DNA from: a virus
Lineage: Duplodnaviria > Caudoviricetes
DNA length: 24,750 bases
Reading direction: 5' to 3' (one strand)
IMG/VR virus record: IMGVR_UViG_3300050195_000279
Coordinates: 1-24,750 of that record
Made by a program: the position numbers and the translations under genes. Under the pieces are notes generated by a model. The model had not been told where the DNA came from and ran no database searches. It saw only the letters and a list, made by a program, of their open reading frames with translations. The number at the start of each line of letters is the position of its first letter. Positions within the stretch are counted from its first letter, which is position 1. Of the stretch, positions 6,462-20,804 are shown piece by piece.

Positions 6462-6820
6462 CAGGTACTCGAAGTCGTTGAGGTAGTTGTGCTGCCGTAC
6501 TTGGTATCTACAGTTACCGCCACACTAAATTTGCGCGTGGTCGGGTCCACATAGCTCGCATACTCCGTGATTTTTGAAACGCCAGTGGTTTTCAGAATCT
6601 CTGTCTGAAATGCCAAGTCGCGTGTCGCCGCTTTATTGGTGCCAACAACGTCAGTGTCATAGGGCATTCCTTGCGTGCTATCCAAAAACCACTCCCCCTG
6701 TCGCAATTTCAATCTGGTCTGAATGGCCTGCGCCACTGCGGCAGGCGAATCCACCAACATATTTGCGCCGTTCTGGCCAAAGGTAAAATCACCATCTGCA
6801 TCAAGCGCCCTATATCTCAT
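6461..6820 (-). CDS. Baseplate wedge/sheath initiator (gp25/gp46-like)
   Basis: MRYRALDADGDFTFG...AVAQAIQTRL..GEWFLD..G motif; lies between spike and J. Confidence 0.8.
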   Translation of the reverse strand: MRYRALDADGDFTFGQNGANMLVDSPAAVAQAIQTRLKLRQGEWFLDSTQGMPYDTDVVGTNKAATRDLAFQTEILKTTGVSKITEYASYVDPTTRKFSVAVTVDTKYGSTTTSTTSST

Positions 6821-6821
6821 G

Positions 6822-7622
6822 TCACCCACCTTTTACCGTGTTTGTCAGTTGATCGCTTGTCATCTGAAGATCGGAAACTGAGGACAACGCACCGACCGTA
6901 TTAGTCGTGTGCTTGTGGCCGTTGAATATCGACATGAATGCCGACGTGACGAAGCTCAGCAAACTCTGCCCAGAAGATCCCAACGTTATCGCCGGCGCAG
7001 TCACCGAAGCCGACTCAGTCGCCGCCACCATCACATTCGCCGCTGAAATATTGGCATTCCCCGTCACATTGATATTCACTGCGCCACCGATAGTGGCATT
7101 CCAGTTCCCGCTTGTTGTGATATCAATATCGTGCAATGACGGATTCAGACCGATAAACGCCGCCCCATCATTGCTGCGCAGTTGCACAGAATCCCCGCTC
7201 CAACCGCTGATTTTGGTGGCCTGCGAGAACGGCCCGGGAATGGCAAAGCCATCAGATAGGTCATGCATCCGCAGCTCTGATTGCACCTGCACATCACCAC
7301 TCTGCCACCATGCATCAATACACCGCGATGAGAAAACCACCAGGCACTCATCACCTTTGGCGATCGGGAAAGTCAGCGTACAGCCACCGCCGCGCGGAAA
7401 TGTGACCGGCACATCAAGCAGCAACGGCAACGCTACCCATTGCGTACTGCCATCCGGGCTACGGACATTCGCCTTAATCGCCGGCTGCACAGTGCAGGTC
7501 AACGCATCAGCATTAAAACTCTCGACAATGCCTGGGAGTGCAGTCCACATTCTGGCTTGACGACCGTCCAGCGCAGATCGCAATCCCTCTTCAAAATCAT
7601 TATGCAGTTCTCGTTGATCCAT
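6822..7622 (-). CDS. Baseplate central spike (gp138/gpV-like)
   Basis: ALPGIV, LLDVPV.FPRGGG, GDECLVVF..RCID.WW and RMHDLSD motifs plus a C-terminal HxH (GHKH) iron site; GGAG RBS before ATG 7622. The longer ORF-track start runs into the RNA array terminator. Confidence 0.85.
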   Translation of the reverse strand: MDQRELHNDFEEGLRSALDGRQARMWTALPGIVESFNADALTCTVQPAIKANVRSPDGSTQWVALPLLLDVPVTFPRGGGCTLTFPIAKGDECLVVFSSRCIDAWWQSGDVQVQSELRMHDLSDGFAIPGPFSQATKISGWSGDSVQLRSNDGAAFIGLNPSLHDIDITTSGNWNATIGGAVNINVTGNANISAANVMVAATESASVTAPAITLGSSGQSLLSFVTSAFMSIFNGHKHTTNTVGALSSVSDLQMTSDQLTNTVKGG

Positions 7623-7642
7623 AATCCAGTCTCCATAAAGAC

Positions 7643-7668
7643 AAAGGGCTCCATTTCTGGAGCCCTTC
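7643..7668 (-). terminator. Terminator-like hairpin closing the array
   Basis: AAGGGCTCCA-GAAA-TGGAGCCCTT followed by TGTCTTT. Confidence 0.6.
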
Positions 7669-7999
7669 GAATGCCATTTCTGGCCCATGCCTCACCACAC
7701 CGGGCCTTAACATGCCGGGCCGTACCCCGCCGAACCACGCCACACCAAAGCGGACTGGGCCGTACCCTTGATGCTATTCGCATCGGTCAGCCCGAAAGCT
7801 GACCGCTGAAAACAGCCCATGCCCTGCCTAAGCCAACCTCGGCTCAGCCCACCTCGCCGCAGCGCACACAAACATAGCTCGCCACAGATGCTTACCGCAT
7901 CAGATAGCAACCTCTTCGAAGATGCTACCTGCTGTTGTCAGCCCCTACCAAGCCAGACCGAAACGCACCTAATCACAGCACAACATGGCACGCCAATCC
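7643..7999 (-). ncRNA. Putative guide-RNA array: three period-5 G(G)Y-NN tracts separated by conserved hairpins, ending in a terminator-like stem
   Basis: Tracts at 7999-7945 (11 units), 7883-7819 (13 units) and 7766-7687 (16 units). G at unit position 1 in 38/40 units, pyrimidine at position 3 in 39/40, exact GGY in 24/40. Each tract ends in GG plus a 4-bp hairpin. Confidence 0.8.
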
Positions 8000-8467
8000 T
8001 TACTTCAAGCCTTTGCGATACATCCCCTTCATCGCCGCCATCTTTGCAACAGCATCAACATTCTCACGACGCTGCTCATCGGAAAGTTCAAACACCCGAA
8101 TGTTTCGCAGCTTATTGCCGGCACTGCGAAATGCTCGATTTGCATCCTTCTGAAATGCATCCTCAGCTATCCGAGTCTGCTCCTGAGGGGGAACCCAGCG
8201 AAAGCCCTCTCCGCGAACTGACTGAAGCAGAACTGAGTGATCCCGCAAAAGCTCATTCTTAAACGACTCGATGTTAGACAGCCATTCAAATTGATGACTC
8301 CGAAAGTCTTGCGCTGTCATTTCCACTTCATCGCCCATTGTCGGCATACCGAAATGCTCGGCAAGCCAAGCATGACTAATCATGTCGCCATACTTGAACT
8401 CTCGCAAGCAGTCCTGCACCGCCTGCCGCCACGATGGATATCGAGATAATTCCACCTCGTCACTCAT
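8000..8467 (-). CDS. Hypothetical protein (155 aa) between the RAMP-like gene and the array
   Basis: ATG 8467 overlaps the end of the upstream gene; its stop abuts the first repeat tract; helical protein with a SVRGEGFRWVPP segment. Confidence 0.75.
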   Translation of the reverse strand: MSDEVELSRYPSWRQAVQDCLREFKYGDMISHAWLAEHFGMPTMGDEVEMTAQDFRSHQFEWLSNIESFKNELLRDHSVLLQSVRGEGFRWVPPQEQTRIAEDAFQKDANRAFRSAGNKLRNIRVFELSDEQRRENVDAVAKMAAMKGMYRKGLK

Positions 8468-9029
8468 ACTCCACCTCGAATCGACCGAAGCGCGGGCGGA
8501 ATTCGCAAGTGCCAATCAAAGAGCCGGCATCTGAGATTGTTTTTTTGATTTCGTTCAAATCCAGCACTTCGGGATTGAACGCCACAGTCAGGTGGGCGGA
8601 CCAGTCCATGAATACCGGCCGATACCGCATCAGCTTGCTGGCACCAATCTTTACGCCCCGACAATCAACAAACCGAGAGTCCGCCCAAAGATCTTCTGGA
8701 CTGTCTGGGCCATCAAACATTAATTTTGCCCGGTCTGTCTGAACAAGCGCACCCCGTTTCCATGCTGTGCCAAGTTTTTGCAATTTCGCGCCGGCCAGAA
8801 AAGTCGCATCAAGATTTTGTCCTGGAATAAAGAACCCGACTTTCTTATCCCAATACGCCCCAGCAATGAACTCTGATTTTGCGATCGCGAGGTGATCCTC
8901 ATCAGTCTTCTTGCGCTTGCCAGTCAATTCTTTGTGTAACTTTGTTTCCGCCGCCAATGGGTTAGCAAGGCGGTCCGAGTGCATCATCAGCGGCGATGTG
9001 CCGGTAATTTTCAATTTCAGCAGTTCCAT
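8460..9029 (-). CDS. Stand-alone RAMP/Cas7-like RNA-binding protein (Vipr-like)
   Basis: N-terminal beta strand LKITGTSPLMMH, central FIPGQNL, RPVF..W strand and C-terminal Gly-containing loop AGSLIGTCEFRPRFGRF, matching the RAMP layout; TAATG-coupled to Rha. Confidence 0.7.
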   Translation of the reverse strand: MELLKLKITGTSPLMMHSDRLANPLAAETKLHKELTGKRKKTDEDHLAIAKSEFIAGAYWDKKVGFFIPGQNLDATFLAGAKLQKLGTAWKRGALVQTDRAKLMFDGPDSPEDLWADSRFVDCRGVKIGASKLMRYRPVFMDWSAHLTVAFNPEVLDLNEIKKTISDAGSLIGTCEFRPRFGRFEVEYE

Positions 9030-9727
9030 TACATCCCTCCGTGAATTTTTACTAAAGCGGCCTCAAGCGTCGTCTCATGATATGCGTTCACAACTCCATA
9101 TCTAGCATCCCGCACCTTGTCGATCGGGATACTTTTTTCCCGACTCAAGGTGCCGGCCGCCCGGCCAAGCCGCTGCATATCACGCATAGCTAACTTGATA
9201 CCGCGCAACGCACAAAAACCCATCACGGTGAAGAAAGAATGCCCCTCCTCAAAAGCTGATTGCTTTGCCTCGATACGCTTAATGCTCTCTTGTTGAATTG
9301 CCTGCTCAGCTTCTAACTCAGCCTGCTTCGCTTTTATCTTGACGTTATCGACCATCAAAGCGACAAGTGCTTGCTGCTCTGGGGGCAAATCAGCGAGTGG
9401 ATCTGGTGCATTCAATTTTGCGCGCATTTCAAAGAAGCCTTTCACCAGGGCAACTTTGAAAGATCGAACTATTTCGCTGTTCCGCATAAATGCAATCACC
9501 AAAGCAGATTGCTGCTCGTTCAGTACCGCGAACTCGATATCCGCACCACCATGTTGACCTACCTGTCTTGGTTGGATTTCAAATCTGACCAAGCCAAACG
9601 ACTCCAAATCGGCTCGATGCTTGCGCACCAGCTTAATTACACTTGCATGATCATTTTTTGTGCCAGCAGCAATTGCCAACGATGTCGTGACAGCTTCGCC
9701 GTCTTTGATAGTAATCAAATCGCTCAT
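9029..9727 (-). CDS. Rha-family phage regulatory protein
   Basis: VTTSLAIA...HASVIKLVR...LNEQQ...MRNS..V..FKVALVK.FFEMR N-terminal domain; coiled coil, then a C-terminal domain ending YG.VNAYH. Confidence 0.8.
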   Translation of the reverse strand: MSDLITIKDGEAVTTSLAIAAGTKNDHASVIKLVRKHRADLESFGLVRFEIQPRQVGQHGGADIEFAVLNEQQSALVIAFMRNSEIVRSFKVALVKGFFEMRAKLNAPDPLADLPPEQQALVALMVDNVKIKAKQAELEAEQAIQQESIKRIEAKQSAFEEGHSFFTVMGFCALRGIKLAMRDMQRLGRAAGTLSREKSIPIDKVRDARYGVVNAYHETTLEAALVKIHGGM

Positions 9728-9900
9728 GCTCTACCTCCACGCATCGCAGGTGTCACTGCCGCCGATTTAGACTTGTACTGTGCCACCAACATCGCCAACT
9801 CTCGCTGATCTAGCGATAGATACAGGGACAACAGACTTGATTCGTCGAGCGTCAATCTGTTGGGGTTCAGATATTGCGGTCGCAGGAGGTGATGGCTCAT
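9724..9900 (-). CDS. Small hypothetical protein (58 aa)
   Basis: My translation: MSHHLLRPQYLNPNRLTLDESSLLSLYLSLDQRELAMLVAQYKSKSAAVTPAMRGGRA; ATGA overlaps at both ends tile the operon exactly. Not in the ORF track. Confidence 0.65.
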   Translation of the reverse strand: MSHHLLRPQYLNPNRLTLDESSLLSLYLSLDQRELAMLVAQYKSKSAAVTPAMRGGRA

Positions 9901-10286
9901 GCTGCACCTCCAGCCACCAAACGAAGCGATGGGCGGGTGCGCTCTTTGGCAAAACGTGCGACCATTCTAGGCAACTCTCGTGACAGGCACGCCTGATCAC
10001 GCGGATCAATTTTCTGAAAATCTCGGGCGATATGAATGCCTGAATACGCTTTCGTACCCGCCTCGATGGCATCATTTATTGCAAGATCGTAAATGAATAT
10101 GCGATTCGAACCACTCATGCCCCTGTAGGCACGCACCAAACGCGCCTCTTCGGCTGTCAAGGCGACAACTTCGGTCGATTGGCTGACCAAAATAGGCTTT
10201 TTCGCATGCGAAATTTGTTGCACTTCCGCTGATGAAGCGCCATTTATAGATTGCCCAGTAATGCATAACGGCTTATCATTCGCCAT
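9897..10286 (-). CDS. Hypothetical protein with repressor-CTD-like LTxEExxLxxxYR motif
   Basis: AGGAAGG RBS; LTAEEARLVRAYRGM motif; C-terminal RPSLRLVAGG. Confidence 0.65.
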   Translation of the reverse strand: MANDKPLCITGQSINGASSAEVQQISHAKKPILVSQSTEVVALTAEEARLVRAYRGMSGSNRIFIYDLAINDAIEAGTKAYSGIHIARDFQKIDPRDQACLSRELPRMVARFAKERTRPSLRLVAGGAA

Positions 10287-10318
10287 AAATCACCTTCCTT
10301 TTGCTAGGGTTGTTGATT

Positions 10319-10359
10319 AAAACCCCGAACCCAATCCGCCAAGATCTGTTCGGGGTTTT
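10319..10359. other. 12-bp inverted repeat (attenuator, terminator or processing stem) inside the Arc-Rha operon
   Basis: AAAACCCCGAAC (10319-10330) pairs with GTTCGGGGTTTT (10348-10359). Confidence 0.7.
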
Positions 10360-10363
10360 TCGT

Positions 10364-10525
10364 TTACTGCACCGCATTTCGCGCACCTTCTTGCTGCACC
10401 TTCTTTTCCTTCAATACCGCGACGATCTGACCGTTCAGAGAACGTTCACTATCTTTCGCAATTTCTTTCATCCAATTCGCCAGTTCGATAGGCATTTTCA
10501 GTGTCATGCGATGGAACTCTTCCAT
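10364..10525 (-). CDS. Arc-like ribbon-helix-helix repressor (53 aa)
   Basis: My translation: MEEFHRMTLKMPIELANWMKEIAKDSERSLNGQIVAVLKEKKVQQEGARNAVQ; beta ribbon plus RSLNxQIV Arc signature. Not in the ORF track. Confidence 0.85.
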   Translation of the reverse strand: MEEFHRMTLKMPIELANWMKEIAKDSERSLNGQIVAVLKEKKVQQEGARNAVQ

Positions 10526-10540
10526 TTTTCACCCTTTCTC

Positions 10541-10592
10541 GACACTGTTTTAGTGTCATGAGCAAAGTATCTTACGACACTGAAACAGTGTC
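10541..10592. promoter_or_regulatory. Two 17-bp palindromic operators
   Basis: GACACT-GTTTT-AGTGTC (10541-10557) and GACACTG-AAA-CAGTGTC (10576-10592). Confidence 0.8.
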
Positions 10593-10594
10593 AA
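10566..10594 (-). promoter_or_regulatory. Sigma70 promoter for the arc-rha-RAMP-array operon
   Basis: TTGACA (10594-10589), 17-bp spacer, GATACT (10571-10566). Confidence 0.75.
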
Positions 10595-10631
10595 TCATTT
10601 TTTGACATATTTTTCGTGCTATCTTCCGACC

Positions 10632-11132
10632 ATGGAAAAAGACCGCTACACACGAATTACTCTTCGCATCCCATCTGACCTGTATGGAAAACTGGTGTAC
10701 GAGGCTGATGTCACGAGCAAATCCACGAATGCCGAAATCGTGGCGCGCTTAAATGACTCATTTTTAACCGACGATCCATCGGGGCGCCTTCGCGAACTCG
10801 AATTAACTGTCGAGCACAATGAAATCATTGTCACTGCACTCACCAATGAGTTAGAACGATGCCGCCAGGTTATTAGCACCCAAGAGCAACTTATTGCGAT
10901 GTTAGGCGTACACCTTCGCATAACTGCTGAGCGCGTTCCCACCTCCGACGACCAGACGTCCAATTCACTAATGGCTGTCATGAAAAACTTTGGTAATGCA
11001 ATTGCTCATAACGATCTAAAAAGCGCAGCCATCCCAATGATGGAATTACTTAAACTTGGAACTGACCTCGGGATTTTTAACGAGGATGGCACTCCTGGCC
11101 CAAACCATCCCAATGCCCGCAATAAGCCCTAA
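10632..11132 (+). CDS. Arc/Mnt-family DNA-binding protein with coiled-coil C-terminus
   Basis: RITLRIPSDL...KSTNAEIVARL RHH signature; divergent from the small Arc gene. Confidence 0.85.
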   Translation: MEKDRYTRITLRIPSDLYGKLVYEADVTSKSTNAEIVARLNDSFLTDDPSGRLRELELTVEHNEIIVTALTNELERCRQVISTQEQLIAMLGVHLRITAERVPTSDDQTSNSLMAVMKNFGNAIAHNDLKSAAIPMMELLKLGTDLGIFNEDGTPGPNHPNARNKP

Positions 11133-11755
11133 CTCTCCTAATCAACACCCTCACCTTCCCACGAAACGCAAAATCCAAATAATTGTTTCGTGGGCTATCG
11201 CAAATCTGCAACACCACCAATTTACCGGTTCCTGTCAGGCGTGGTTGCACCGCAAAGATAATCACATCTCCCGCAAAAGTCGTGTGACATGAATCGCACA
11301 ACGCCCTTGAAACCCACAGCCACTCTACCTGCCCCCGCAAACAGATCAACCATAAGGAATTCAAAAACGTTGTGATTGACAATCGCACATGCGCCTAACT
11401 GTACGTAGCCAAGCGAAATATACACCCCCGATAAACCGCCGTTCATGGCCCATTTCGAGGGTCTTGCCATTTACCCGGCCCCGTCAGTTCGATGCATCCA
11501 TTTTGCAACAAACATCTAGGCGCGGTTGCACAATGAAAATGAACAACGACATTTTCTTCCAAGCCAAAAATTTTTCACAGGCTGGAAACGTTTCCCGCGT
11601 TGACACGAAATAACTATCCGCCAAATTCTTGGCGTTATATGCAATTTCCCCGGGGAGAGTCATGCACCGCCAAAACTCAGAGCAACTATACTTCGTCGAT
11701 CAGTCACGAAATGGTCACGCTGAGGGGTGTTTTGGGGGTTTATTGGTATAGGCGT

Positions 11756-11782
11756 AAAAAAACCCGCCTGAGCGGGTTTTTT
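11756..11782. terminator. Bidirectional intrinsic terminator
   Basis: A7-CCCGC-CTGA-GCGGG-T6 between convergent transcription units. Confidence 0.8.
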
Positions 11783-12402
11783 TATTCATCTTTTTCTTGT
11801 TCCGACCTTGATCTATCTGGTCGATCTGGCGTCCCTTGTCGAATTGCCTCTATAACTCGTGGCCCCAAAAAAACAGCGCAGAGAACGCCAAGATCAAGGC
11901 CCGCGATAACACCAGCAACTACGGGGCTATAGGCGGCGACGATCCCGGCCGCAACCAAAGCTGCGACTGCGATCGCAAACGCAAGATATTGCCCCCGTTT
12001 ATCTTTGGCAATTGCTCCATCCAAGGCTTTTTGCTGAATAGCATGCGAGTGCTCTTGGGCCTTTACCGCCATCTGCAAAATGGATTGACGCACGTCAGAT
12101 GGATATGCGTTGATCACATCGGGCGGCGGAAGGGGTCCCGAAAACGTTCTTCGCTCCGTTACCTCCATACGTACAACTTGGAGCCCAATAAGCTGCGCCT
12201 CAATCACTTCAGGAGAAAATCGCCCCTTCAACTCACGCAGAATCTGTGCACGCTGCTGCATCGGCAAATTTTGCTCCAAAACTGGAGTCAATGCCGCATC
12301 CAACTCTGCTTCGTCAGGCAACTGAGGATCAGTTTTTTGATGACTATTAGCTTGCGCTTGTGGCTGCAAATGTCCGTTTGGATCTTCTTGCTGGGTCGTC
12401 AT
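11782..12402 (-). CDS. DUF2335-family membrane protein
   Basis: FSGPLPPP...Y...I..MA...Q.H...RGQ motif followed by two TM helices. Confidence 0.8.
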   Translation of the reverse strand: MTTQQEDPNGHLQPQAQANSHQKTDPQLPDEAELDAALTPVLEQNLPMQQRAQILRELKGRFSPEVIEAQLIGLQVVRMEVTERRTFSGPLPPPDVINAYPSDVRQSILQMAVKAQEHSHAIQQKALDGAIAKDKRGQYLAFAIAVAALVAAGIVAAYSPVVAGVIAGLDLGVLCAVFLGPRVIEAIRQGTPDRPDRSRSEQEKDE

Positions 12403-12647
12403 TTATAATACTTCTTCGAGTTCCATTCACTCTTAGGCAAGAGATGTTCAATGCACACGCCAGAATGTTTGTTTTTTGAAATGTATGCATCGGAAAAGTG
12501 AACTGCTGCCTCGTCAAAATAGCTACCAATGCGCTGCACTGTAGTACCGCGTGGCATGTATTCCAAATAACTTCCAAGAGGAAAAACATCCACAACGCTT
12601 CCAACCACTTTGGCTGCGGACGCGCGACGGCTAGATTTTTCGCTCAT
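12399..12647 (-). CDS. Small hypothetical protein coupled to DUF2335 (82 aa)
   Basis: GGAGAG RBS before ATG 12647; its end overlaps the DUF2335 start. Confidence 0.6.
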   Translation of the reverse strand: MSEKSSRRASAAKVVGSVVDVFPLGSYLEYMPRGTTVQRIGSYFDEAAVHFSDAYISKNKHSGVCIEHLLPKSEWNSKKYYK

Positions 12648-12857
12648 TACAACTCTCCAGCTTGAATTAATGACTGCATATAAATGATAAGAATTCTTAT
12701 CTACAACTTCTGTATACGCAAACAATAGCATGAATTAATGTAGTACATAAATTATCTAGAGTTTGAACAGTTGGCGCTATAAAACATACCCACATCGGTC
12801 TGACATTAATCTCAGATATCAGTTGCGCTATAGTTACCCCCTCACAGAGGAATAACT

Positions 12858-13334
12858 ATGAAAAAAATACTGATTAGTATTTTTCTATCAGCAAGCGCCA
12901 CCGAGGCACTTGCGCAATCTGCCGCCGCTGAGACAGCCCCGTGGTTTCCAATAACCAGCGCAATGTATGCACTCTCCCCACTGGAGGACAAAAAAATTGC
13001 ACTTTCTGCCTCGATTGATACAAATACCCATTTGGTTGCAATAAAACTGATAGATTTTGGTGGTGCCTACTGCGCTGTTCGTGAAACGTCTGCACCAAGC
13101 TCGATATCCCCAATTTCCGTTGATGGACAATTTTTGAAATTTACGCGTGGCTGCATAAATGGCACAGGGATCGTTCAGCCGGAATCAGAGCAAGGCAAAA
13201 AATTCCTATTGGATAAAGTGCAATCAGAGAAGCCATTTTTAATCGATGCTGGAGCTAATGGAACGCTACCATTTGCATCTAGAAACTTCTCCTCGGTAAT
13301 CAAAAAATTACAACAAGTTCAGAATGCTTTTTAA
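12858..13334 (+). CDS. Secreted/periplasmic hypothetical protein (moron)
   Basis: GAGGA RBS; Sec signal MKKILISIFLSASATEALA; one Cys pair; AT-rich. Confidence 0.7.
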   Translation: MKKILISIFLSASATEALAQSAAAETAPWFPITSAMYALSPLEDKKIALSASIDTNTHLVAIKLIDFGGAYCAVRETSAPSSISPISVDGQFLKFTRGCINGTGIVQPESEQGKKFLLDKVQSEKPFLIDAGANGTLPFASRNFSSVIKKLQQVQNAF

Positions 13335-13335
13335 T

Positions 13336-13767
13336 ATGAAAAAAAAACTGCTCGGGATGTTTTATTTGCTTTTCTGTTTGGGAATGACTGTAGCAGCTGA
13401 TGCTAGGTCTCAAGCCAAAGGCCTTGAATCTTTGGAGCGTCAACCGGCATTACTGCCCGGCCTTCCCGATCTCACAAAAAATGTGTACCTGTCCAAAGAC
13501 TCATTGGCGTGCGTGAGTAGATACGAAATCGTTGGCACATCAAAAGCATTTCCACAAAGAATTGAAGACCCTCAAATAGTCGCTGCCCTGCGGAGTAGTG
13601 GATGCGCTTTTTCAGACAAGGAGATGAGGGTAGTTGTTGAATTACCCGACGCATCTTCTGAACTTTACCTATCAGAGAAATATGCACAATACGTTGGCAT
13701 ATTTTGGCGAAATCCGAGTGGTCAAATTTGGCGCGGATACACAATGATTTCCAATCTGCATAACTAA
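13336..13767 (+). CDS. Secreted/periplasmic hypothetical protein (moron)
   Basis: Sec signal MKKKLLGMFYLLFCLGMTVAADA; mature Cys pair; stop overlaps the convergent hub stop. Confidence 0.65.
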   Translation: MKKKLLGMFYLLFCLGMTVAADARSQAKGLESLERQPALLPGLPDLTKNVYLSKDSLACVSRYEIVGTSKAFPQRIEDPQIVAALRSSGCAFSDKEMRVVVELPDASSELYLSEKYAQYVGIFWRNPSGQIWRGYTMISNLHN

Positions 13768-14726
13768 GCGCTAATCGGTACTGATTTGCTCTGATCTGGG
13801 GCTGTAATATCGACGCCCAAACAGGTCAAATCAACATACCAAGCCCCCCCGCGAGAATCGCCTGAAAACTCGCTGACAAGAACGCGATAAAATCCCTGCG
13901 CAGTAGTTGGCACGGCCGATAGAACTTCAGCGCCAGTGAATCCCTGTCGCTGCATCGTTATGTGGGTTATATTTTCTTGGTCAATTTGAATCAATCGACC
14001 AATACGAATCGCAGGATTAAGTAATGAGCGAACCTTAAGTCCACTATCGTTAATGGCCTCAGGCGTGCCAACAAGACCGCTCGCAGAAGACAAAACAACT
14101 GCCTCACCAGGGCGATATCCAGTGTTTTTGACTACTGAAAACTTTCCATTTTCAATATTCCATCGATAGCCGTACTTTGCGGCCCAATCTCGAGAAAAAT
14201 CACGGGCGAGTCCAAATTTAGCTACGCCTCTTATCGTTTTTACTACGCCCAACCCACTGCCCTCGATCAGGCCTGTCGCATCATTCGCAAGAGGAAGTGC
14301 ATTGACGCCATTTACCGACTGTACTTTCACAATAGACTCAATAACCTGCTGTGGCGTCTGTCCAGACTCGATAGATTGGCAAATTACTGCCCATGCATAC
14401 CATTGATCACCATCGCTTGCCACGATATCGAGAAATGAATCAGTATTTCGCTCCCGTCCCGTCATGACTTGGACAATAGTCCCGGAAAAAATTATTCCAA
14501 AGTTACCGCTCTCATATCCTGCTTGCAGAGAAACTGTTGTGAATTCCCGTTTCCGGAGAGCCTCCGCAGTCTCTCTCTTAACGTTATAGATTCTTAGGTG
14601 CATTTTATTCGGCGTCTGCGCATCGCTAGCCTTGGTCTTGAACGTAAATCGCAGCTCAGAAAGATCAAGCCCTTCCGTGCCAGAGCTCACGATCAAATTT
14701 GCCCGGCGAATCCATTGATCACTCAT
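13764..14726 (-). CDS. Baseplate hub protein
   Basis: DLSELR..F, RIYN, LQAGY, IFSG.I, DGD..Y, GLVG.PE, LLNP.I and GDSRG..WY motifs; position after tape measure and plug genes. Confidence 0.8.
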   Translation of the reverse strand: MSDQWIRRANLIVSSGTEGLDLSELRFTFKTKASDAQTPNKMHLRIYNVKRETAEALRKREFTTVSLQAGYESGNFGIIFSGTIVQVMTGRERNTDSFLDIVASDGDQWYAWAVICQSIESGQTPQQVIESIVKVQSVNGVNALPLANDATGLIEGSGLGVVKTIRGVAKFGLARDFSRDWAAKYGYRWNIENGKFSVVKNTGYRPGEAVVLSSASGLVGTPEAINDSGLKVRSLLNPAIRIGRLIQIDQENITHITMQRQGFTGAEVLSAVPTTAQGFYRVLVSEFSGDSRGGAWYVDLTCLGVDITAPDQSKSVPISA

Positions 14727-14732
14727 ACATCC

Positions 14733-15044
14733 TCACGAAACGATTGCATATAGGTGGCTTGTTGTACCGAGGCTGGCGTAGCTTGGTACGACGTCTGGAG
14801 CGTTGTCTGTTTGCGCGACCAGTTGAAACCCGAAATCAAGATAGTCGAACTGATCAAGTAGATCGACGCCCGTCACCATCGGTATGCCCGACACGATGGC
14901 ATTGCCACTTGCATCAGCAATATCGATCATCCAAGACACGTTGATCGCGTTCCACGTCACTGTGAACTGATACGTTGTGCCGGCCAGTGCGATGCTGAAA
15001 GACTGCGCGCTGGCTGTAAGTGGAATTTCGTAATACGAACTCAT
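14733..15044 (-). CDS. Small baseplate protein (plug-like)
   Basis: YEIPL...QSFSI.L.G..Y...W..DI...GIPMVTGVDLL.Q pattern; synteny. Confidence 0.7.
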   Translation of the reverse strand: MSSYYEIPLTASAQSFSIALAGTTYQFTVTWNAINVSWMIDIADASGNAIVSGIPMVTGVDLLDQFDYLDFGFQLVAQTDNAPDVVPSYASLGTTSHLYAIVS

Positions 15045-15727
15045 GGCAATGCATTTGTGTTGATGTTGCTGGCGGTCTTCGCATTGACAGTTCCACGATT
15101 CACAGTGGCTCCATTGCTTTCAGGATTGGCCATCAACGATGAATCAGGGACCGTCACCGTTTGCGTCTTCGCCATCAGGATCTGCCGGCAGGTAACTCGA
15201 ACCAGCATGGAGTTCTCGGTTTGCTGGTTCGTCGTCAAGCCAATGCTTTTGATGAGCATGTTCAGATAAAGGCGTCGGCCTGTCTGAACATCGAACAGAA
15301 TTCTGTTCTGATACGCATAAAGCAATTGGGTATAGGCATCATCGATCGTACTGTCACCGTTCGAAAAATTCACATACCCTTGATACGCCTTCGCTGCAGC
15401 GACGACAGCCTGGATTGCGGGGTTGGAATTTGCCGCGGCTCCCAGAATCTGATTGCTCAGCCCTGTTTCATTTGGGCTGTTTGACCATCCCAGTGTCAAA
15501 ATAACTTCTGACGGCCTAGCGAACGCATGATCAGCTATCACGGAGCCCTGCTCTACCGGATGCTCCGTGATTTCCATTTCATCGCTATGCACCTCCTCAA
15601 TTGTTGCCATCGCAGCAATCGAAAAGTTAGACCCATCCGAAGCTGTCATGCCTCGCTGAGCCTTAATGACGAGCAATTGCAGCGCAAGCTGCGCCGTTGT
15701 CTGGGCAAGATTGGTAATTGCGCTCAC
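15041..15727 (-). CDS. Tail tube initiator / Dit-like baseplate protein
   Basis: EE.H.D..EITEHPVEQG..IADHA and TG.R.Y.NMLI motifs; directly after the tape measure. Confidence 0.75.
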   Translation of the reverse strand: MSAITNLAQTTAQLALQLLVIKAQRGMTASDGSNFSIAAMATIEEVHSDEMEITEHPVEQGSVIADHAFARPSEVILTLGWSNSPNETGLSNQILGAAANSNPAIQAVVAAAKAYQGYVNFSNGDSTIDDAYTQLLYAYQNRILFDVQTGRRLYLNMLIKSIGLTTNQQTENSMLVRVTCRQILMAKTQTVTVPDSSLMANPESNGATVNRGTVNAKTASNINTNALP

Positions 15728-20215: not shown

Positions 20216-20277
20216 AAAAAAAAGAAAAAGCCGCAGAAGGCGGCCCAGAAACGAGAAACCCGGCGCTGGGCCGGGTC
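20216..20277 (-). terminator. Two tandem hairpins after rha, the second with a long T tail
   Basis: ACCCGGC-CCAGC-GCCGGGT, then GCCGC-CTTCT-GCGGC-TTTTTCTTTTTTTT. Confidence 0.6.
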
Positions 20278-20791
20278 AGTGAAGTAACAGTGATGGTTGT
20301 ATTTCGGCTTCCAGCCGGATCCGCTCATGCTGCAGCGGCGGAATTTCCTTCTTTCGCTGCAGCATCAGGTGTGAGCCGAATGACGCCCGGACCTTCGATT
20401 CCACCTCTTTTGCGATCAGTGCCTGCATCTGCTGCCAGAGGTTGGAATTGCGATGATTCAATGTGTCGCGCATCCTGAAGAACTCTTTCACCAGCGCCAC
20501 TTTGAAATCGATGACCTTTTTGCTGTTGCGCATCAACGACAATAAGAGTGCCGCCTGATGTTCATTCAGCATTGCAATTTCCCGGGACTGCGTGCCGCCA
20601 TTCGTCACAAAGGGTGCAATCTGAAATTGCACCCCTCCAAGTTCGCCCAGTGATCCACTATGCTTGCGAACTAGCTGCATGACGGCCCGGTGTTTTTGCC
20701 CCATTTCTTGGGAAATGACTTCGGTTGAGGTCAGCGGTTCACCGTCAACGGCAACAACAAACCGAAAATTCCCAAAACTAATATCGTTCAT
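20276..20791 (-). CDS. Rha-family phage regulatory protein (second copy)
   Basis: TSTEVIS...HRAVMQLVR...LNEHQA...MRNS..V..FKVALVKEFFRMR. Confidence 0.8.
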   Translation of the reverse strand: MNDISFGNFRFVVAVDGEPLTSTEVISQEMGQKHRAVMQLVRKHSGSLGELGGVQFQIAPFVTNGGTQSREIAMLNEHQAALLLSLMRNSKKVIDFKVALVKEFFRMRDTLNHRNSNLWQQMQALIAKEVESKVRASFGSHLMLQRKKEIPPLQHERIRLEAEIQPSLLLH

Positions 20792-20804
20792 TCGAAACCC
20801 CAAT

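Follow-up and report, generated by a model that had tools for sequence, protein, structure and literature searches.

The locus described here raises the question of what a pentamer tract in a tailed phage reads, and how a phage can carry such a tract while encoding a similar sequence itself. In the window, i.e., the whole stretch analysed (positions 1 to 24,750 of IMG/VR record IMGVR_UViG_3300050195_000279), 13 pentamers lie on the minus strand at 7883-7819 with the dinucleotides (NN) GA AT TG GC GC GA GG GA GA TG TA AG AT. The first-pass annotation had read this string as codon positions 1 and 2 of a baseplate hub gene with wobble positions skipped, and had proposed that the true target is the homologous hub of a related phage, the self copy being mismatched enough to escape. 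Our analysis places the tract, very probably, as the second of three type II-like VIPR guides, of which units 1-11 match the hub of kin phages and through which a Vipr-RNA filament likely binds and blocks the tail operon.

The tract proved to be as annotated, and so did the segment of the phage's own hub to which it had been compared (14429-14391): the quoted letters are correct, the gene is a baseplate hub (phrog_196, E 1.8e-55), and 8/13 dinucleotides match in codon register, the top window site by whole dinucleotides when one base is skipped. The accompanying binomial estimate was also reproduced (2.25e-7 per site; 0.011 for both strands; 0.033 for three tracts). When the order of units in tract 2 was shuffled 2000 times, the 8-dinucleotide score was reached in 2.15% of shuffles (p = 0.0215). 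Counted by bases the site scores 17/26, which 68.6% of 2000 order-shuffles reached (p = 0.69) and which two further window sites share for this tract at the same skip. Taken alone, the self match is marginal and a lead rather than proof; the weight comes from the homologues.

The tract belongs to an array of three, each followed by a tail, that lies next to two protein genes on the same strand (Table 1). The window Vipr is 42% identical to the phiSUSP1 protein over 189 columns (E 1e-55), and its sole PDB match is 36pp, 'SUSP1 Vipr protein' (E 3.2e-45), to which we provisionally assign its fold by sequence identity. Functional residues of SUSP1 Vipr are named in passages of one preprint (10.64898/2026.04.26.720927). 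Equivalents of SUSP1 H17, K33, R39, K82, G87, R138 and R179 are retained in the window protein, and the changes are D177 to E, W178 to F, E71 to Q, M72 to N, K88 to T and C173 to I. The likely vap ATG overlaps the vipr stop, although the ORF finder extends the gene to 8515. Over 128 aa the vap-like protein shares 27% of its residues (E 7e-19) with the product of the gene after phiSUSP1 vipr, taken as vap1 from its position. On the array, the tails and the Vipr/Vap homology this is, as far as sequence can tell, a VIPR locus, and Vap homology together with the layout points to type II.

Table 1. Features of the VIPR locus, its surroundings and the partial sites in the own hub; positions refer to the window unless a locus is named.
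Feature	Position	Strand	Remarks
Insert between hub and spike genes, 6.1 kb, carries VIPR locus	7641..13763		From hub-spike spacing in relatives
Rha-family regulator gene, directly upstream of vipr	9029..9727	−	PF09669, phrog_518/2657
vipr gene, putative RAMP-like guide-binding protein, 189 aa	8460..9029	−	phiSUSP1 homology; phrog_4652
vap1-like accessory gene, 155 aa	8000..8467	−	phrog_5926; likely ATG start at 8467
Tract 1 (guide 1), 12 units	7945..8004	−	11 read units 8004-7950 plus one unmatched tail-side unit
3' tail 1, predicted three hairpins	7884..7944	−	Consensus fold with relatives
Tract 2 (guide 2), 13 units	7819..7883	−	Units 1-11 = 7883-7829; units 12-13 unmatched
3' tail 2, predicted three-hairpin plan as tail 1	7767..7818	−	Consensus fold
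Tract 3 (guide 3), 16 units	7687..7766	−	Units 1-14 match kin hub antisense; units 15-16 unmatched
Short tail 3 with intrinsic-terminator-like hairpin	7642..7686; hairpin 7669-7642	−	Consensus match only
Own baseplate hub gene	13764..14726	−	phrog_196; homologue of gene matched by guides 2 and 3
Own-hub site for guide 2	14391..14429	−	17/26 bases; units 3, 5, 9 broken within units 1-11
Own-hub site for guide 3, residues 215-230	14037..14084	−	18/28 bases; one-codon insertion 14045-14043
VIPR insertions before hub in three related loci	L039:11042-11340; L041:11042-11380; L072:11037-11340

Tract 1 was first called at 7994-7945 and is extendable to 8004, its first unit overlapping the vap stop codon. 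Strict GGY trinucleotides make up 5/12, 6/13 and 13/16 units of tracts 1, 2 and 3, respectively, and non-GGY units amount to about a quarter across 160 related tracts. The consensus fold of the tails contains 20 pairs, 11 of them with a double change (11 rows, one mis-registered); folded as a single sequence, tail 2 takes a different, nested structure. The tract search of the window found no additional vrRNA upstream, and Rfam models detected no hammerhead or other family at 7500-8100, with one weak sub-threshold match over the terminator. A promoter scan gave 4 sites vs. 3.0 expected. Of the 24 runs listed, none was an RNA dataset holding the locus, which speaks neither for nor against expression. 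There was no repeat-spacer array in the window and no cas family among the scanned ORFs.

Relatives leave little space where the window carries its insert: the hub-to-spike gap is −3 to 759 bases in 31/37 close hub loci reaching the spike. GC is 0.467 at 9727-13764 vs. 0.53-0.54 in the flanks, and in this low-GC part a 22-bp inverted repeat (10541-10592) is flanked by two divergent Arc-like genes (10525-10364 and 10602-11132); the same part also encodes a DUF2335-like membrane protein (12402-11782) and a number of unknown ORFs. A second Rha-family gene (20276-20803) is inserted before the tail sheath. The related locus L030 is 99.4% identical to the window and has identical arrays; all 45 listed differences fall at 1663-2491, mostly in an HNH gene (1653-2069), the rest of the 8-kb overlap being identical, and this clustering suggests a recombined patch. 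Contigs of four other runs, which drop rare variants, contained no substitutions over 6800-15200, and no guide turnover in the population was seen across these contigs.

For guide 2, an exact IMG/VR scan with an 8-unit core (units 4-11) returned 24 hits. Six were hub homologues. Over units 1-11 five of these, all distinct sequences, match at 22/22 and the last one at 21/22; outside hubs, the remaining 18 hits reached 16-19/22. Eight of these 18 represent one unrelated gene in which extension fails at 16/22; an 8-unit core can therefore converge on one family by chance, yet without extension. The same core in reversed order gave 13 hits, none in a hub and none above 20/22. An 11.5-unit pattern had a single hit among 185,579 species genomes, the hub gene in a Janthinobacterium lividum MAG. 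One genome scan left 5 of 401 genomes unscored. On the protein level, guide 2 decodes on the sense strand to D-I-W-A-A-D-G-D-E/D-W-Y, which equals for 11 codons the column consensus of 120 homologous proteins, D-I-W-A-A-D-G-D-E-W-Y-N-F.

An unbiased hub set was then assembled by protein similarity, with 124 hub-bearing loci reduced to 87 after deduplication and to 37 close hubs (at least 50% identity, near full length). Guide 2 matched 37/37 with 19-24/26 bases and a mean best score of 22.0/26 at a skip of one base, vs. 14.76±0.46 (maximum 17.3) for 300 shuffled versions on the same hubs. Skips of 0, 2 and 3 scored 14.4, 14.6 and 13.9, i.e., at shuffle level, and were rejected. Within the hub footprint the majority base has a frequency of 0.92 at read positions and 0.59 at skipped ones, and the bases skipped by all three guides are codon position 3. 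The annotated proposal of hub homologues in related phages as the true target is borne out by the five hubs with 22/22 over units 1-11; the best gapped matches fall in hub genes, and shuffled dinucleotides miss the hubs (14.8 vs. 22.0). Its 13-unit decoding holds for units 1-11 and fails for units 12 and 13, each matched in 0/37 close hubs, and no 13/13 target was found.

The best natural matches of the three guides (22/22 for guide 1, 24/26 for guide 2 and 26/32 for guide 3) are all at least 80%. Target records are full-size phages, two of them (L110 and L123) with a capsid gene, and of ten target records searched, five bear the provirus class. Vipr was not found in 5/5 hub-target records or in genome G001. 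Among the hub homologues the names Paraburkholderia, Caballeronia, Herbaspirillum and Janthinobacterium occur, and these names, the basis for the assignment, suggest a Burkholderiales host common to the phage and its targets.

Guide 3 leads to the same gene independently. Its footprint lies on the hub antisense strand about 375-390 bases downstream of the guide-2 site, and in 2.97 Mb of loci that had been collected without guide 3, its top 12 hits were all in hub genes, antisense and with wobble skipped. It matched 37/37 close hubs at 23-26/32 (mean 24.7; shuffled 17.13±0.50), with skips other than one base again at shuffle level, the best score over 14 units being 26/28, and its weak units were unit 6 (1/37 hubs), unit 12 (4/37), unit 3 (6/37) and unit 4 (4/37). 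No exact guide-3 target was recovered from IMG/VR, where units 5-12 gave 12 hits, none above 22/32, and a relaxed 10-unit pattern gave 0 hits. With neither a 13/13 guide-2 target nor an exact guide-3 target, the true donor phage is not in hand.

Guide 1 reads another tail gene. Its 8-unit core had 24 hits. In 14 of these, at 11 distinct sites, three more units bring the match to 22/22, antisense and in wobble phase; two of the added units fall beyond the original tract call and were included once the hits had been seen. The remaining 10 gain no extra whole upstream unit. The 22/22 sites belong to one tail-sheath family (phrog_23 in L275; L280 without family hit), which has 43% identity to Ralstonia phage sheaths and is unrelated to the window's own sheath (best E 0.81). 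Guide 1 was rejected as a hub guide (12.5/20 in hubs vs. 12.0 shuffled) and as a tape-measure guide (15/20 in a tape-measure homologue). A hub of the window's family was found in none of 5/5 sheath-target records, and a guide-1 site within 3 mismatches in none of 5/5 hub-target records. A single competitor bearing both target types was rejected on these searches, and with hub and sheath targets in separate records at least two phage groups are targeted. One 22/22 target, L288, shares the dataset number in its name with L030, a weak hint of co-occurrence.

The units nearest the tail behave differently from the rest of each tract. Besides units 12 and 13 of guide 2, units 15 and 16 of guide 3 were matched in 1/37 and 0/37 hubs, and the last unit of guide 1 in 0/14 targets. 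Directly before the tail, NN is AT in 66/115 and AA in 20/115 distinct related tracts. Sites of at least 90% were present in the fetched loci for 42/135 related guides vs. 1/135 shuffled guides; among 34 guides ending at the tail motif, for which the last two units were kept out of the search, the last unit matched in 6/34 and the second-last in 18/34, vs. 31-34 for the selected inner units. The last unit before the tail would then be mostly scaffold, and guide-2 unit 12 may pair with the common hub sequence as A plus a G-T wobble. Such unmatched tail-side units bear on guide design. At the other end of tract 2, the adjoining pentamer 7888-7884, within tail 1, has an NN that fits the preceding Val codon in 2/5 distinct perfect targets, which may be chance.

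The phage's own hub is predicted to be spared. The window-best self scores, for a record that is a 24.75-kb fragment, are 13/20 for guide 1 (14/22 when extended), 17/26 for guide 2 and 19/32 for guide 3, and no self target of at least 80% occurs in this fragment, guide 2 standing at 65% of 26 bases and 77% (17/22) over units 1-11. With 17/22 and 18/28 bases at the two sites, the own hub is predicted to be too divergent for binding. The reading that this escape was selected, either by mutation of the own hub at the footprints or by keeping guides where self differs, has several points in its favor and is nonetheless rather unlikely. For the five hub-directed guides, self lies at or near the bottom of the 25 closest hubs (1, 0, 3, 1 and 9 of 25 equally low), the one-codon insertion in the guide-3 footprint occupies a column that is a gap in all 93 aligned homologues, and the L072 hub scores 18/26 vs. 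22 for a 92%-identical hub. When only columns with 85% conservation or more are counted, self is changed at 8/18 positions inside the footprints vs. 27/149 elsewhere (p = 0.015); however, this enrichment fades at thresholds of 70% (p = 0.08) and 50% (p = 0.35). Pseudo-guides drawn from relatives' hubs show an equal self deficit (window p = 0.54 and 0.31; others 0.55, 0.18 and 0.22; Fisher 0.35), and the own hub is 41-45% diverged throughout, with 55-59% identity to the 25 closest hub genes among the fetched loci. Selected escape is not supported because the self score is no lower than overall divergence predicts, and the simplest reading is that the phage, as a divergent member of its family, can for that reason carry such guides. 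Two hub homologues with the N-terminal type of the window hub, P0001 and P0004, each have 9/24 conserved footprint columns changed, by different substitutions.

The other alternatives concern whether the guides act on rivals at all. Autoregulation, in which the guides weakly bind the own hub and damp the own late operon, e.g., in a lysogen, could draw on two partial own-hub sites about 345 bases apart, the guide-2 site being the window's best by dinucleotides, and on the four loci that sit inside the operon type their guides match. Yet other phages fit far better (22/22 vs. 17/22; 26/28 vs. 18/28), guide 1 has no self site and its sheath target is unrelated to the window's own, and the discovery preprint saw no self hit of at least 80% (10.64898/2026.04.26.720920); we regard autoregulation as highly improbable. 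We would give only a small chance to a relic array, whose guides were once acquired against kin phages and whose silencing was lost as tracts 1 and 2 decayed. The low GGY content of these two tracts and the lack of an exact target for guide 3 would agree with decay, but the NN of tracts 1 and 2 are still perfect over 11 units, which limits the change to scaffold positions; vipr and vap are intact, the tails keep covarying pairs, and no substitutions in the locus were seen in L030 or four other runs.

Finally, a short gapped pattern might meet a conserved protein motif by chance in a huge database, and 8/24 core hits did fall in one unrelated gene. Those hits stop at 16/22, however, the reversed control fails, the hub was predicted before the search, a second guide falls in the same gene and all three guides are wobble-phased. 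For guides 2 and 3 chance is refuted by the 37-hub scores and the independent guide-3 hits, and its overall probability is negligible. Guides directed at kin tail genes remain the preferred explanation, against which stand the lack of a 13/13 guide-2 and an exact guide-3 target, the low GGY content of tracts 1 and 2, and the changes in Vipr at the GGY contacts D177, W178, E71 and M72.

Under this guide-target explanation, the array would likely be co-transcribed with vipr-vap and then cut into three RNAs. Vipr would coat each RNA, hold the trinucleotides and present the dinucleotides, and the resulting filament would bind rival hub or sheath DNA so that transcription stalls, with a block that is probably polar on the downstream spike and wedge/baseplate genes. 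An active locus would thereby silence competitor tail assembly and spare the own hub. The setting might be either a lysogen facing incoming phages or a lysis facing resident prophages.

The window locus may be one of a branch. Among the Vipr loci examined (best 80 of 166), L039, L041 and L072 carry, besides L030, a VIPR in a complete tail module just before the hub. Their guides decode to kin tail chaperone (16/16), tape measure (17/18), Dit-like (20/24) and spike (17/18) genes, and to kin hubs (20/20 and 19/20; 31/40; 23/26). In 1.18 Mb of hub-bearing loci, a database made up of kin of the phages tested, 9/12 guides from the four tail-module loci scored at least 2 bases above each of their six shuffles, whereas 3/133 other guides did so, two of them, one a known vipr-directed guide, matching L039. 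Two L039 guides match L041 itself. The window Vipr belongs to a ten-member group (support 0.87), in which three of the nine other loci lie in tail modules. Within it L039, L041 and L072 form one weakly supported clade (0.57), by which two insertion events rather than four may be possible; among relatives with a name, the closest found is Pseudomonas phage Medea1 (72.5%). Elsewhere, L069:12166-12215 and L055:6735 are convergence sites for many independent guides in a large related Vipr branch, and L083-L090 have, about 520 bases after vipr, tracts of 17-29 units with internally repeated dinucleotide blocks, which suggests slippage or duplication.

Much of this agrees with what is published for VIPR. 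The 1-nt skip rule and wobble alignment are established in passages of three 2026 preprints (10.64898/2026.04.26.720920, 10.64898/2026.04.26.720927, 10.64898/2026.10.15.759431), in which arrays of other VIPRs are also described as transcribed, Vipr-bound and repressing transcription on either strand without a PAM. The first used a natural-target cut-off of 80%, at which there were no self hits, and reports in its text and the legend of fig. S12 that array-wide GGY substitutions abolished SUSP1 silencing (10.64898/2026.04.26.720920).

The window locus resembles the type II VIPR of Escherichia phage SUSP1 in vipr-vap-array order and in both proteins (Vipr 42% and Vap 27% identical; PDB 36pp), in GGY/NN tracts of 12-16 units, a structured 3' tail, the 1-nt skip, the wobble phase and the use of either strand, and its tracts of 12, 13 and 16 units lie in the VIPR range of 9-16. 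In contrast, SUSP1 guides converge on a satellite (the recombinase was tested) and window guides on tail genes of full-size phages; the window tail is a predicted three-hairpin unit and that of SUSP1 has a pseudoknot, no upstream vrRNA was found in the window, non-GGY units are more numerous and the locus lies between hub and spike. The type II clade of Pseudomonas fulva prophages, likened here by its preprint description, also has three vrRNAs, vipr and vap1, and targets in other (pro)phages, mainly lysis-lysogeny regulators of Pseudomonas prophages; its targets include other vipr genes, and here such guides occur in L066, L069 and L093 (L069:11072, L066:11075 and L093:11064 match other loci's vipr gene at 95-100%, self best 70-78%).

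Solo vrRNAs of SUSP1-family phages likewise target homologues of carrier sequence with a lower self match and wobble-aligned footprints, and for vrRNA-targeting guides the self score is below the rival score, according to passages of 10.64898/2026.10.15.759431. As described there, they target vipr genes, vrRNAs, satellites and REP elements and act without vipr, whereas the window carries the whole system and shares with its rivals a target that is an essential virion gene. The VIPR preprints already contain the decoding rule, the skipping of wobble bases and the low match to self. Small guide arrays for inter-phage targeting are also found as phage-borne CRISPR mini-arrays against competing phages; these carry contiguous spacers between repeats and use host Cas proteins. 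They differ from the window, which has no repeat-spacer array.

What appears new are the assigned targets, the tail-embedded pattern directed against kin tails and the unread tail-side units. The targets described for VIPR in passages of the three 2026 preprints are satellites, lysis-lysogeny regulators, vipr genes, vrRNAs and REP elements. Guides against kin tail genes are absent from these main-text passages, and literature searches brought up no paper that reports them, although the data files may list such guides, the SUSP1 satellite having hub and tape-measure genes. Each of the three guides of the window's VIPR locus now has an assigned target, and the late tail genes of kin phages of full size would add a target class to those named in the passages. 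Passages of 10.64898/2026.04.26.720927 and 10.64898/2026.10.15.759431 hold no mismatch-tolerance data, and the natural site pair of rival (22/22) vs. self (17/22, three units being broken) lends itself directly to measuring such tolerance.

A single guide would reach many competitors, since throughout the clade the hub footprint hardly varies at the positions that are read. On balance, we favor the view that a type II VIPR branch in the tail operon of one myophage family is a kin-directed weapon against virion assembly, with the divergent carrier spared and the tail-adjacent unit or units serving as unread fixed scaffold. If this is true, hub, tape-measure, chaperone, Dit-like, spike and sheath motifs are read by such guides, and a single guide would cover a rival clade.
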